The notes: generated by a model from the sequence alone, not told the origin. A DNA stretch of 61,678 bases, filler included, from Basidiobolus ranarum (GCA_040143965.1; 16 parts of 16 records of this genome joined end to end with filler, not necessarily neighbours in it), one strand, 5' to 3'; positions 50,428-53,988 are shown, counted from the whole stretch's first letter. Program-made: numbers and translations.

Positions 50428-53400
50428 CTACTCGACCTTTATATCAGAAGGTTCACTAACTCGGAATATACCCCAGAGACCATCAAATATATTGGTGAAC
50501 ATGACTCCATCTCGGTATGCCCAGTCACCTGGATACACACTGGCGTAAAAAGTGTTACTCTGCGTGAACCCTGGGGTGATGGCATTGTTCGTCGCTGAGA
50601 ACTCACGTCCCGGTCGGGCATTCTGTGACAACCATCCATGACCATGTAAGTGCCAGGATGCGGGTCTCAGCTTGTCCAAGCCACCAAGAACTCGAAAGCG
50701 TTGTAGTACACCAGATTGCGCACTGAAGATTCGAGTGGATGGTTGATCCGTACGGAGCCAGTCAGGGGCGCTCGCTGGGTGATTTCGGTAATTAAAGGCT
50801 TTTTGTCCTTGATCTACGTAATCCACATAAATAAAACCATTGCTTGGATCGATGTTAGGAGGTGCGTCACCATTTTGATCGCCATCTTCTATGTTGTCTT
50901 CTTCATCAATTCCCAGATCAGGGACTGGTTTATTCAGATCCCCATTTTGAAATAAGCGTAATCCACTCTGAACAATCAGAACCTTATCTTGGTAGATTAG
51001 TGACTTTGCGCCATAAATATCACCAGCATGTGAGGGTGAAGCGCTGTGATAATACACATCGGTCTCTGCTGAGTACCACGAGTCAGGTTGATCGTGAGGA
51101 CCCAAAATGATCAGAGCACCAACCAGACCATGATGTTTATGGTTTCTCACATCAGCGAAATCTTCTAGGAGGATTGGTCCTAGTGGTTGATCAGCATACC
51201 ATGTGTAAGTTCTCGTTTGCTTCGGGGGAACAGTCTGATCTGAATTGAAGCCAACGTTGCTTCCATCATTGTCGCGAACGTCATATCGAAGCAGGTCGGC
51301 ACGGATAGAGACATGATTAGAGACTCTACGGTCCGGATTGTCGGCTGGAACTTGAGGAGCAAAAGGTTCAGGGCGGAGTTTGTCAGGTAGATTGTTTCTC
51401 AAGTGTATTTGGATAAATTCTCCGGTACGGCCACGAATAATCAACGGCTCTAGGTGACCATTATATTGGTTGAGACAAGATTTGGAGTCGGTGGCATTTA
51501 CCCATTGTTCCGACATCGGTTCCTTGTATCCTTTGAGGCAATAAACAATGCCAAATGGATCTATCCAGTTATCATCGTTATACTGAAGGACCTGTGACTG
51601 AGCCTCAACCATGTATTCACGTAATATTGAGCGCTCAGCCACTGGAGGAGACAATACACTCATTCCATTGTAGCCGAAGGGATGGTTGTTGTTCGGGAGT
51701 AGAGGAAGATGGTTCTGAGATTTATCATACACCCTTGTGATGCCCCAACAACCGATCCATAGATCATCAACGCCAGAGAGTTTGTACAGATGGTCACCTG
51801 GGGAGTAATCAGATAACACGTCCAGAGTAAATCCTTCCGATGTGCCTATGATCTGCTGATTGGATACCAGTACCTCAGAGTTTGCAAAAAACCTTGACCA
51901 CCGCATTCCATGGATCTGGAAGCTATGGGGCTCTTCATGTGCACCTTGCACCAACCGAATCACTATTCTATCTCCAGGATAAGACTCAAACAACGTGGTA
52001 GATGGATCGCCATACTTGCCTTTACTACTAAACTGCTCAGAAGGATCCACATCTTTTCTTTCCACTAATGGCTCATTTCTGTAGTTCAATACCACAATTC
52101 CGTGGTCTTTTTTGGGATCATCATTGGGATTAATTGGATTGCCTCGAGAATCAAAGGCTGGCGCAAAGTCCCCAATAAACTGTACTTGTTCACGGAATGA
52201 TTGACCAGAGTCAGGAGTCAGAATGACTGCACTAACTCCGTCCCGTTTTTCTCGAGTCAAATCGTAGGGATCCAAGTAAATCGCTCCTTCAGGTTCCACA
52301 GGAGCTAGGCCGTAAAGACCCTTCTTCTGACGGTAATTAGCAAATAAGTGGTCATGGAAGAAAATATGGCCTAAAGCGTCATCCACCCACCACCTGTTTA
52401 TCATATACTTTCCGAAACTAGCGCCACTCATATAGTTCCACCCAATAGAGGCCCCGTCACTAGCTTGAACATCGAACTTGACAAGATGAACATGCATACC
52501 AGCCTCACCCTTGTGGCGAAGTGCCTTGCATCGTGGAAAATCTTCGTCAAAAGCAGTTCCCGGAATGAATGTGGGTAATTTATTAGTGAACTTGTTTACC
52601 GCAACTGTATTCTCGTTCAGTCGTAGAACAAATGGTTCATATTGACTAGGACCTTCTGGGGCTGCTGGCTTCTGCTCTTCATCCAAAATGTATAGATGTC
52701 CATAAGGATAGTGCCAACCATGCTTGTTGTACTCGAAATGACGAAGTGCTATCGAGACATTGGCATGTACTTCCTTGGGCTGTCGTGGAGTGGGGATCAA
52801 AGTGAAAAGGTTGCCAATCTGTGGGTCCTTGTTCATGTTGAGAATTTCCAACTCTGAAGCAGCTCGATAATCGGCATTCTTTGGTATTTTACCGAACTTC
52901 TGAACAGGCCAGGGAACTCGAGGGGATTTCTGACCTACAACACCATCAATGAAATTGGGAAATCCTGGGTGACGTTTGTCTTTCAATGGTGGATTTGGAC
53001 GTGTAGGGAGAATGGCCAGCCTTTCGATCGGTGTACCGTCGGGATACTTGCCCTTTCCTTCCTCAAAACGATCTAGCACTCTCATGATACCCCACATACC
53101 AGTCTCAAAGTGGGGATATAAATGGCAATGCCAAACCACATCACCAATAGATTTTAGTCTTGATCCGGCTCCATAGTGGATATCGAGATCCCAGGATGTT
53201 TGAGGCGACATGGAGAAAGCATCAATGGTAAGACTCTCACGGTCACCACGAAGGGAACTCCACTGGTGAATGTGTAAGTGGAAGACGTGGGTTTCCTTGA
53301 CTCCAGCATGCACAACTCTGAACTTGACGGGATCACCAGCGTAAGCACGGAACACAGGAGTGGCTGGGTCACCAAACATCCAGCTAGAATGATGTTGCTC

Positions 53401-53988
53401 TTCACCGTTGACATTCAACTGTTCACCATTTCTAATCCTCTCATATAACACATGCTCTCGATTCCGCATAGGTTCTGAACGATAGTTAATAGAGTTGGTC
53501 ATCAAATCAAGCTTTACAGTTGTATTTGTACATGGGTCGATTGGACGAGAATTGAAGTTACTGACATCCGTCTGATCGTGGAAGAATGAGACAAATTCGC
53601 GGAATGAACAATCAGGATGCGAGAATTTATCTTCTTCCTCAAAGAAACCTCGTTTAGGGCACCCACCATATTTCTGAGGGGGGTGAATGTCGGCTATCAC
53701 TCCGTCATCTGTCAGTTCACCAGTGATCGGGTCGGTCCAGGTAGATCCTCTTGGCTCAACCACAACTGCAGCAAAGAGTCCGTGAATATGAGTTCCATTG
53801 CCGGATCCATCGTAGTCGCCATTGTTGGAAATCAGGTAAGTCCCTTGTTTAAGACATGGCCAACGATATTGTATTTGCTGATTGTACCCTACGGTGGAGT
53901 CCGGGTTTCTTCCCACTGATGAGCCATCGTTTTCAATGGTTTGCCCAAAAAGATGAGGATGTAAGCTAACTCGTCGATTTCGAATTTC
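50428..53988 (-). CDS. mnxG: Large MnxG-like multicopper oxidase (putative manganese oxidase); intronless; 5' end truncated
   Basis: Frame is open to the contig edge (>1180 aa). THVFHLHIHQW, WHCHLYPHFETGMWG, GMHVHLVKFDVQASDGASIGWNY, FFHDHLFAN, QGAHEEPHSF, WHLHGH. Confidence 0.85.
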   Translation of the reverse strand, partial: EIRNRRVSLHPHLFGQTIENDGSSVGRNPDSTVGYNQQIQYRWPCLKQGTYLISNNGDYDGSGNGTHIHGLFAAVVVEPRGSTWTDPITGELTDDGVIADIHPPQKYGGCPKRGFFEEEDKFSHPDCSFREFVSFFHDQTDVSNFNSRPIDPCTNTTVKLDLMTNSINYRSEPMRNREHVLYERIRNGEQLNVNGEEQHHSSWMFGDPATPVFRAYAGDPVKFRVVHAGVKETHVFHLHIHQWSSLRGDRESLTIDAFSMSPQTSWDLDIHYGAGSRLKSIGDVVWHCHLYPHFETGMWGIMRVLDRFEEGKGKYPDGTPIERLAILPTRPNPPLKDKRHPGFPNFIDGVVGQKSPRVPWPVQKFGKIPKNADYRAASELEILNMNKDPQIGNLFTLIPTPRQPKEVHANVSIALRHFEYNKHGWHYPYGHLYILDEEQKPAAPEGPSQYEPFVLRLNENTVAVNKFTNKLPTFIPGTAFDEDFPRCKALRHKGEAGMHVHLVKFDVQASDGASIGWNYMSGASFGKYMINRWWVDDALGHIFFHDHLFANYRQKKGLYGLAPVEPEGAIYLDPYDLTREKRDGVSAVILTPDSGQSFREQVQFIGDFAPAFDSRGNPINPNDDPKKDHGIVVLNYRNEPLVERKDVDPSEQFSSKGKYGDPSTTLFESYPGDRIVIRLVQGAHEEPHSFQIHGMRWSRFFANSEVLVSNQQIIGTSEGFTLDVLSDYSPGDHLYKLSGVDDLWIGCWGITRVYDKSQNHLPLLPNNNHPFGYNGMSVLSPPVAERSILREYMVEAQSQVLQYNDDNWIDPFGIVYCLKGYKEPMSEQWVNATDSKSCLNQYNGHLEPLIIRGRTGEFIQIHLRNNLPDKLRPEPFAPQVPADNPDRRVSNHVSIRADLLRYDVRDNDGSNVGFNSDQTVPPKQTRTYTWYADQPLGPILLEDFADVRNHKHHGLVGALIILGPHDQPDSWYSAETDVYYHSASPSHAGDIYGAKSLIYQDKVLIVQSGLRLFQNGDLNKPVPDLGIDEEDNIEDGDQNGDAPPNIDPSNGFIYVDYVDQGQKAFNYRNHPASAPDWLRTDQPSTRIFSAQSGVLQRFRVLGGLDKLRPASWHLHGHGWLSQNARPGREFSATNNAITPGFTQSNTFYASVYPGDWAYRDGVMFTNIFDGLWGIFRVSEPSDIKVE

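Follow-up and report, generated by a model that had tools for sequence, protein, structure and literature searches.

The locus described here raises a question of ownership, origin and role: does a large multicopper oxidase gene of a type known from Bacillus, found in a genome assembly of the fungus Basidiobolus ranarum (GCA_040143965.1), belong to that fungus, how was it acquired and what might its product do? The gene lies in a stretch of 61,678 nucleotides (the window, positions 1–61678), which is made up of 16 unrelated contigs of 3744–3779 bp each, arranged in descending size with N44-TTAATTAATTAA-N44 spacers between them (at 3780–3879, 7657–7756 and onward to 57835–57934). As these contigs are unrelated, any reading that uses adjacency across a spacer is invalid. 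The gene-bearing contig (50243..53988, 3746 bp), with the spacers 50143–50242 and 53989–54088 on its two sides, carries on its minus strand a 5'-truncated frame (50428..53988) for a six-domain multicopper oxidase of MnxG type. It is likely that this frame is a resident and probably functional gene of B. ranarum, truncated by the assembly and apparently unannotated, which would encode a secreted MnxG-type oxidase derived from an old bacterial transfer.

Reading frame and its missing 5' end

Translation of the minus strand gave 1186 codons followed by TAG (50428–50430), confirming the uninterrupted 3.56-kb frame that had been described in a first-pass annotation of the window. The span given there stands, but its upper end cannot serve as a gene limit, position 53988 being the edge of the contig, where the frame is still open. 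The first in-frame ATG is found at residue 163, homology already begins at residue 1, and in the orthologue of Basidiobolus meristosporus (K493DRAFT_374135, hereafter 374135) 140 residues precede window residue 1. It follows that the assembly has cut off the 5' end of the gene and that, judging from the alignment, about 140 N-terminal residues, a predicted signal peptide among them, lie beyond the contig edge.

No other gene is present on the contig, the remainder of which is a 3' flank of 185 bp (50243..50427, minus strand) with a guanine-cytosine (GC) content of 0.378. An AATAAA (50260–50265, minus strand) occurs in this flank 162 nt past the stop codon and hints, though weakly, at a eukaryotic poly(A) signal. 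Three loops of low confidence in the structural model (residues 773–777, 984–993, and 1028–1052) were considered as possible unspliced introns and rejected, since they are in frame and the alignment flanking them is continuous.

Family membership and fold

Of 7818 candidate proteins, 1023 matched in a protein search at E ≤ 0.001, the highest scores exceeding 2000 bits. The match to MnxG of Bacillus sp. PL-12 (9bxa_A) had an E-value of 1.9e-186 and covered query residues 17–961 together with a C-terminal stretch. An AlphaFold2 model, built on an alignment of 69 sequences (54 bacterial and 15 fungal rows), folded into six beta-sandwich blocks and was confident except in the three loops mentioned above (predicted local distance difference test, pLDDT, 90.5; predicted template modeling score, pTM, 0.91). 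The best Foldseek match of this model was again 9bxa_A, with template modeling (TM) scores of 0.84 (query) and 0.82 (target) over 1246 columns at 32% identity, followed by ceruloplasmin (TM 0.53–0.56), while three-domain laccases, CotA and Fet3 reached 0.18–0.19. The earlier assignment of the protein to the MnxG type rather than to laccase or Fet3 is upheld by these results, as 9bxa_A is the best match by both sequence and fold and laccase and Fet3 cover under a fifth of the model.

Homology along the whole chain, the presence of six cupredoxin domains in one chain of ~1200 residues and the layout of the copper sites place the protein with MnxG. Three-domain laccases and Fet3 have 500–650 residues with the L1 and L2 motifs N-terminal, while the window protein has at least 1186 residues and a reversed order of Pfam domains. 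It does not resemble the ceruloplasmin type either, to which it is 11% identical, and its Cys-His-Met set is found in domain 2 only.

Domain limits were taken from the secondary structure of the model, and all domains are encoded on the minus strand. Domain 1 (53659..53988, residues 1 to ~110) is approximate because its N-terminal part is missing, and contains the conserved residues H10 and H69. Domain 2 (53074..53616, ~residues 125–305) holds the only type-1 site and half of the ligands of the trinuclear cluster, the other half being supplied by domain 3 (52291..52782, ~residues 403–566). Domain 4 (51730..52281, ~residues 570–753) is without Cys and carries a conserved HEEPHSFQIHG (51907–51939), domain 5 (51103..51627, ~residues 788–962) carries HKHHG (51127–51141), and domain 6 (50455..51096, ~residues 965–1178) has HLHGH, no Cys and an acidic loop that corresponds to the low-confidence stretch 1028–1052.

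Copper sites and motif order

All 12 of the 12 canonical copper ligands are present (H234, H237, H239, H287, C288, H289, H293, M298, H499, H501, H545, and H547), each of them conserved in 52–54 of the 54 bacterial rows and in every fungal row covering the position. These residues fall in four motifs on the minus strand. HVFHLHIH (53266..53289, residues 234–241) provides the type-1 copper His H234 and the trinuclear-cluster His H237 and H239, positions that are H in 52–53 of the 54 bacterial rows and in all fungal rows covering them. The second motif, HCHLYPHFETGM (53095..53130, residues 287–298), provides the type-3 His H287 and H289 and the type-1 ligands C288, H293, and M298. MHVH (52486..52497, residues 498–501) includes H499 and H501, which are invariant in 69 of 69 aligned sequences, and FHDH (52348..52359, residues 544–547) includes H545 and H547. 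The 9bxa structure is that of an H340A mutant, whose HCHLYPAF is aligned by HMMER with HCHLYPHF of the window protein; H293 is therefore the counterpart of the type-1 His H340 of MnxG.

The same motifs (HVFHLH, the complete type-1 motif, MHVH, and FHDH) and their non-laccase order had been pointed out in the first-pass annotation, and all were located where it had placed them. Motifs of laccase L3/L4 type precede those of L1/L2 type, and Pfam shows the same inversion, with Cu-oxidase_2 at residues 205–304 and Cu-oxidase_3 at residues 498–567. The resulting order (HxxHxH, HCHxxxHxxxxM, HxH, HxH) is the layout of Bacillus MnxG. Domains 4 and 6 keep remnants of HxxxxH type and, because they are without Cys, the protein has a single type-1 site, the Cys-His-Met set occurring in domain 2 only. 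Both the alignment and the model thus predict one type-1 copper in domain 2 and a trinuclear cluster of eight His between domains 2 and 3.

Beyond these ligands, an acidic and His-containing patch, EEQHH (53389..53403, minus strand, residues 196–200, with E196, E197, H199, and H200), is conserved family-wide, as are the His/Glu patches HEEPH (residues 684–688) and HKHH (residues 950–953). These may be candidate extra metal sites, EEQHH perhaps serving the substrate. Codon 896 (51301..51303, minus strand) is CGT and encodes Arg in domain 5 at the position equivalent to the cluster ligand H501 of domain 3, a position that is His in 52 of the 54 bacterial and 13 of the 15 fungal rows.

Residence in the fungal genome

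That the window derives from a fungal assembly was supported by a catalase fragment on contig 7, which is 100% identical to B. ranarum K7432_015817. Other contigs of the window encode eS10, L7Ae, and a retroelement integrase, and there is a fragment of a P-type ATPase (Pfam hydrolase domains) which the list of open frames suggests to be split by introns.

The proteins nearest to the oxidase are those of Basidiobolus. B. ranarum K7432_013123, a partial protein encoded on a 6.8-kb contig, is 84% identical to it and B. meristosporus 374135, on a 127-kb contig, is 74% identical, followed by four more Basidiobolus paralogues at 53–56%, two of which are on one 83-kb contig. Homologs in the chytrids Borealophlyctis, Rhizophlyctis (two assemblies), Powellomyces, Spizellomyces, and Fimicolochytrium are 40–48% identical and are located on contigs of 460 kb to 1.47 Mb. 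For bacterial homologs, identity over the whole alignment does not go beyond ~45%. With one genome per species, 185,579 species of bacteria and archaea were scanned, and of 592 candidate stretches 532 were confirmed; the best 80 of these show no more than 42% identity on their best segment.

Codon usage of the oxidase frame correlated with that of the pooled other frames of the window at r = 0.73, to be compared with 0.40–0.77 for host frames among themselves and −0.56 to 0.48 for 12 bacterial homologs. The GC content of the oxidase contig (0.456) is above that of the other 15 contigs (0.34–0.41) because ~95% of it is coding; coding GC (0.46, with 0.42 at third codon positions) lies inside the range of 0.37–0.49 found for the other coding frames of the window. 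Contamination, which the first-pass annotation had left open, is accordingly very unlikely, given that Basidiobolus supplies the most similar proteins (84 and 74%), that bacteria remain at or below ~45% and that codon usage and GC are host-like.

No identical annotated protein was found among the matches listed, and the window copy is therefore apparently unannotated. Counting by sequence homology, the MnxG-type family is represented by at least four predicted genes in B. ranarum and by three in B. meristosporus.

Two observations concern the gene models of the closest relatives. The model of 374135 is without 42 residues (GYKEP...EFIQI, window residues ~823–864) that are present in the window copy, in K7432_013123 and in the paralogues, probably a coding stretch that was mis-called as an intron. 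K7432_013123 no longer follows the family beyond the position matching window residue ~949 and stops 20 residues further on; its gene model or contig is broken, and the window copy continues unbroken as far as the natural C-terminus. In the databases, these two proteins are labeled as hypothetical protein, cupredoxin or copper oxidase.

Phylogeny and origin

The phylogeny of MnxG homologs proposed at first pass was computed with both FastTree and IQ-TREE, and the fungal clade was found nested among bacteria. In the FastTree analysis (144 rows), all fungal rows formed one clade with a support of 100, including the row P0122, which is from Borealophlyctis. IQ-TREE was run under LG+C20+F+G4 with posterior mean site frequencies (PMSF) on 69 rows and 1213 columns, in a short search with support from the Shimodaira–Hasegawa-like approximate likelihood ratio test (SH-aLRT) only. 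Here the 15 fungal rows again formed one clade (support 100), which is sister to a bacterial clade of 39 rows from mixed phyla (support 98); both lie within further bacterial groups, the group of Bacillota-type MnxG being the outgroup. No bacterial sequence is found inside the fungal clade.

Within the fungal clade, one pair of chytrid paralogues branches first, and the remaining chytrid genes, which split into Rhizophlyctidales and Spizellomycetales, are together sister to seven Basidiobolus rows. The closest partner of the window protein is K7432_013123 (support 88), and the two are joined next by 374135 of B. meristosporus (support 100). The branches leading to the Basidiobolus and chytrid subclades are ~0.46–0.48 substitutions per site each, and two deep paralogue groups are present in both Basidiobolus species. 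Among named proteins, the fungal branch comprises only Basidiobolus and chytrids of the Spizellomycetales and Rhizophlyctidales. A look for further eukaryotic holders among 20 cluster representatives returned P0122 as the only eukaryotic one, the others with a taxon name being bacterial, and only bacterial clusters were seen in a search of the ESM Atlas.

The simplest reading of these sequence data would be one old transfer from bacteria to fungi, older than the genus Basidiobolus. Such a transfer would have been followed by duplications and then either by many losses across the fungi or by fungus-to-fungus transfer between chytrids and Basidiobolus. Of the horizontal transfer suggested at first pass, the bacterial origin holds, as the fungal clade is nested in bacteria, while a recent event private to this fungus does not. 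Placement within a fungal multicopper oxidase clade had been named there as a finding that would speak against transfer; the protein does nest in such a clade, yet the clade is itself bacterial-derived. From what is accessible of PMC7466969, 2–5% of the genes of Basidiobolus come from bacteria; most of these lack introns, and their codon usage resembles that of the host. The window gene fits this published picture, being intron-free over 3.56 kb and host-like in its codon usage.

MnxE/F partners and bacterial neighborhoods

The bacterial partners of mnxG were surveyed in the best 80 of the 532 confirmed bacterial loci (L001–L080) and in the window. Two small frames upstream of mnxG in one Bacillus locus (L037) matched 9bxa_B (E 5e-29) and 9bxa_E (E 5e-30), and MnxE and MnxF profiles built from these frames were then searched over the 80 loci and the window. 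MnxE and MnxF were both found beside mnxG in 28 of the 80 loci, 27 of them titled with Bacillota taxa and one as 'uncultured bacterium'; they were found in none of the 33 non-Bacillota loci and in none of 19 further Bacillota (mostly metagenome-assembled genomes of gut Clostridia), with 10 of the 80 loci having less than 1.3 kb of upstream flank, which makes these negatives less secure. In Bacillales and in some Clostridia, the pair occupies the position immediately upstream of mnxG; in L018 (Bacillus bruguierae), it lies downstream. The profile search found no MnxE/F-like frame in the window, a result that is uninformative as the window contigs are unlinked.

On these profile matches, the MnxE/F ring appears as a speciality of the Bacillus branch and not as a feature defining the whole family. 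Since MnxE/F flank only Bacillota-type loci, their absence beside a fungal gene would be the norm of the family, and the lack of partners that the first-pass annotation had raised as a possibility is no peculiarity (28 of 80 loci with the pair, all Bacillota-type, against 0 of 33 non-Bacillota). A Pfam analysis of 23 flanking frames from six loci of the bacterial sister clade gave no shared operon partner, 17 of the 23 frames being without a family; the families seen were those of a subtilase/LysM protein, of a copper P-type ATPase (close to one Belnapia gene) and of some unrelated enzymes.

Predicted function

The N-termini of full-length fungal relatives are hydrophobic signal peptides or signal anchors, for which reason the window enzyme is presumed to be exported. 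From its sequence and model, it is very likely a secreted multicopper oxidase that reduces O2. The electron route from type-1 copper to the trinuclear cluster and on to O2 is common to all multicopper oxidases. In the window protein, the type-1 copper would take single electrons from a substrate bound at or near the type-1 site and pass them to the trinuclear cluster, where four such one-electron oxidations would serve to reduce O2 to two waters.

To our knowledge, the MnxG proteins of Bacillus and Pseudomonas putida are the only members of the wider family that have been assayed. Both are Mn oxidases according to the accessible part of PMC13689576, which also describes the helper ring as the exit route of Mn(IV) from the Bacillus enzyme. 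Because the assayed relatives are Mn oxidases and because the architecture and the extra His/Glu patches have been kept, Mn(II)/Mn(III) is our best guess for the substrate, made by analogy and with a chance that we put a little short of even. Extracellular Mn oxides or complexes of Mn(III) would then be the products, formed with no help from MnxE/F. The wider proposal, that Basidiobolus and the Spizellomycetales/Rhizophlyctidales secrete an MnxG enzyme which oxidizes Mn(II) directly with O2 and needs neither MnxE/F nor peroxide, is more doubtful, and we offer it tentatively. If true, these fungi would possess an Mn-based oxidant system (Mn(III) chelates or reactive Mn oxides) for use against recalcitrant organic matter or for protection, one with an origin separate from that of the laccases and Mn peroxidases found in higher fungi, and the MnxG class of Mn oxidases would gain its first eukaryotic member.

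Weighing the alternatives

The shortness of the contig (3746 bp), the lack of a second gene, the intronless frame, an overwhelmingly bacterial family and a contig GC above that of the other contigs could together be explained by a bacterium contaminating the fungal culture or library, but this has an extremely small probability: the nearest proteins are from Basidiobolus (84 and 74%) with bacteria at ~45% or less and the best 80 prokaryotic loci at 42% or less on their best segment, the window protein sits inside the Basidiobolus subclade (support 100), and codon usage, coding GC and the GC of the 3' flank (0.378) are all host-like. If only this Basidiobolus lineage had acquired the gene, recently and from a bacterium of gut or soil, the intron-free 3.56 kb would fit, as would the 2–5% of mostly intronless bacterial-derived genes given in the accessible text of PMC7466969. 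Such a private transfer is nevertheless very improbable, as genes from six chytrid genomes belong to the same clade (support 100) in an internal order following the chytrid orders, branches of ~0.46–0.48 substitutions per site separate the Basidiobolus and chytrid subclades, two deep paralogue groups were already in place in both Basidiobolus species, and the clade is free of bacterial sequences. Somewhat less improbable, but still unlikely, is that the window copy is a decaying duplicate (a pseudogene or an assembly leftover), with the function residing in other paralogues. The cut at the contig edge, the lack of an identical annotated protein among the matches listed, the sister copy of 84% identity in the same assembly and the H896R change would suit such a duplicate; however, no stop or frameshift interrupts the 1186 codons, none of the 12 copper ligands is lost, the model is confident outside the three loops and the truncation coincides exactly with the end of the contig. 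Arg896 is, moreover, common to the sister copy, and the change is therefore older than their split.

With regard to substrate, an active multicopper oxidase that is not an Mn oxidase is a real possibility, which we would hold with less than even confidence; it could act on phenols, on pigment precursors (for example in spore-wall melanization), on Fe(II), on Cu(I) or on another small reductant. Promiscuity is common among multicopper oxidases and few of the large MnxG-like proteins have ever been assayed, the window protein is just 32% identical to Bacillus MnxG, His896 has become Arg, and the ring that the available portion of PMC13689576 gives as the Mn(IV) exit in Bacillus is not expected here. 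On the other side, the full six-domain MnxG architecture has been retained, the EEQHH, HEExH, and HKHH patches outside the canonical copper sites are kept family-wide, and the known assayed members of the wider family are Mn oxidases in the same partial source.

A resident MnxG-type gene of old bacterial origin, with Mn as the best guess for its substrate, is the reading that we prefer, and a number of points weigh against it. Among fungi, the family is patchily distributed over two distant phyla, a pattern at odds with simple vertical descent and also with one simple transfer. The genomic context cannot be read, since the contig consists of the frame and 185 bp only, and the gene is without its 5' end in the assembly and without an identical annotated protein among the matches listed, so that this copy may be decaying. 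The NCBIfam model NF041487 (Pseudomonas-type MnxG equivalog) gives 224.2 bits in five stretches, far below its cutoff of 3100, and identity is 32% to Bacillus MnxG, the only biochemically studied relative compared. The nearly invariant His896 is replaced by Arg in the window copy and its B. ranarum sister K7432_013123 only. For the Mn substrate in particular, low identity and a helper ring that is not expected here count against the assignment, and we know of no assayed member in the fungal clade or in its bacterial sister clade.

Other features of the window

The catalase fragment on contig 7 (23247–24464, minus strand) has its next matches at 72–75% among large-subunit catalases, several of them from Nostoc, with myxobacterial proteins at 66–72%, and by sequence may be another bacterial-type gene in this fungus. 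A sulfate-permease fragment on contig 6 matched early-diverging fungi at 27–43% and no Basidiobolus protein, a result that applies to the 'longer' length class only, which is probably the wrong class. Fragments like Ty1/copia retrotransposons, some with internal stops, occur at 11590–12985, 14109–14756, 31848–32564, and 54882–55262; Pfam (integrase core, retroviral SH3-like) backs 14109–14756 only, and the others were judged by translation. Repetitive frames rich in Gly, Asn, and Asp and without a Pfam family are present at 42588–43433 (plus strand), with a signal-peptide-like start, and at 3828–4250 (minus strand). A frame cut by a contig edge at 38043–38588 (minus strand) gave a borderline match to CBM_2, a bacterial-type cellulose-binding family (E 5e-05, 24 bits against a cutoff of 24).

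Novelty and significance

Part of this is already known, as the proteins are public as hypothetical ones and bacterial gene transfer into Basidiobolus is well documented. No literature was found that links MnxG with fungi, Basidiobolus or Chytridiomycota, though the family may sit among the 806 candidates for horizontal gene transfer (HGT) of PMC7466969. The words 'copper' and 'multicopper' do not occur in the text or in two supplements of an HGT survey of 44 early-diverging fungi (PMC11291939), and a survey of MnxG distribution covers, in its accessible part, bacterial genomes only (bioRxiv 10.1101/2022.11.10.515945).

MnxG-type oxidation of Mn(II) is treated as a bacterial trait, and a conserved fungal branch, with several copies and signal peptides, would add a eukaryotic player to the cycling of Mn in soil and dung. 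Its enzymes, presumably able to fold and to act in the absence of the MnxE/F ring, would be of use in biochemistry and remediation, and the branch would supply a clear and datable case of an old gene of bacterial origin common to two distant fungal phyla. For curation, the B. ranarum assembly has an apparently unannotated, truncated extra copy.

Comparison with known systems

The window protein is most similar to MnxG of Bacillus sp. PL-12, a component of the MnxE3F3G complex (9bxa), with which it shares a chain of ~1200 residues, six cupredoxin domains and the same order of motifs. It differs from it in sequence (~32% identity), in its eukaryotic host and in Arg at position 896, and it is known here from sequence and model. 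Bacillus MnxG is built into the spore coat, whereas the fungal relatives carry signal peptides or anchors, and the MnxE/F partners of the Bacillus enzyme are not expected for the fungal gene.

Among fungal proteins, B. meristosporus 374135 and B. ranarum K7432_013123 belong to the same orthologue group and have all copper ligands in common with the window copy, which is distinguished from them as a further B. ranarum copy without a 5' end and apparently without annotation. MnxG of Pseudomonas putida GB-1 (NF041487) is a member of the same superfamily with partial matches in five stretches, but it represents a different and longer branch (model of 1894 positions) with operon partners of its own.

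Ceruloplasmin has three type-1 sites (domains 2, 4, and 6) and a trinuclear cluster between domains 1 and 6. Like ceruloplasmin and hephaestin, its second-best structural match, the window protein has six cupredoxin domains in a ring; unlike ceruloplasmin, to which it is ~11% identical, it has one type-1 site and its cluster ligands are in domains 2 and 3. Fungal laccases and Fet3 (CAZy AA1) share the same copper chemistry and the same ligand motifs, but unlike the window protein they have three domains, ~500–650 residues and the order L1-L2-L3-L4.

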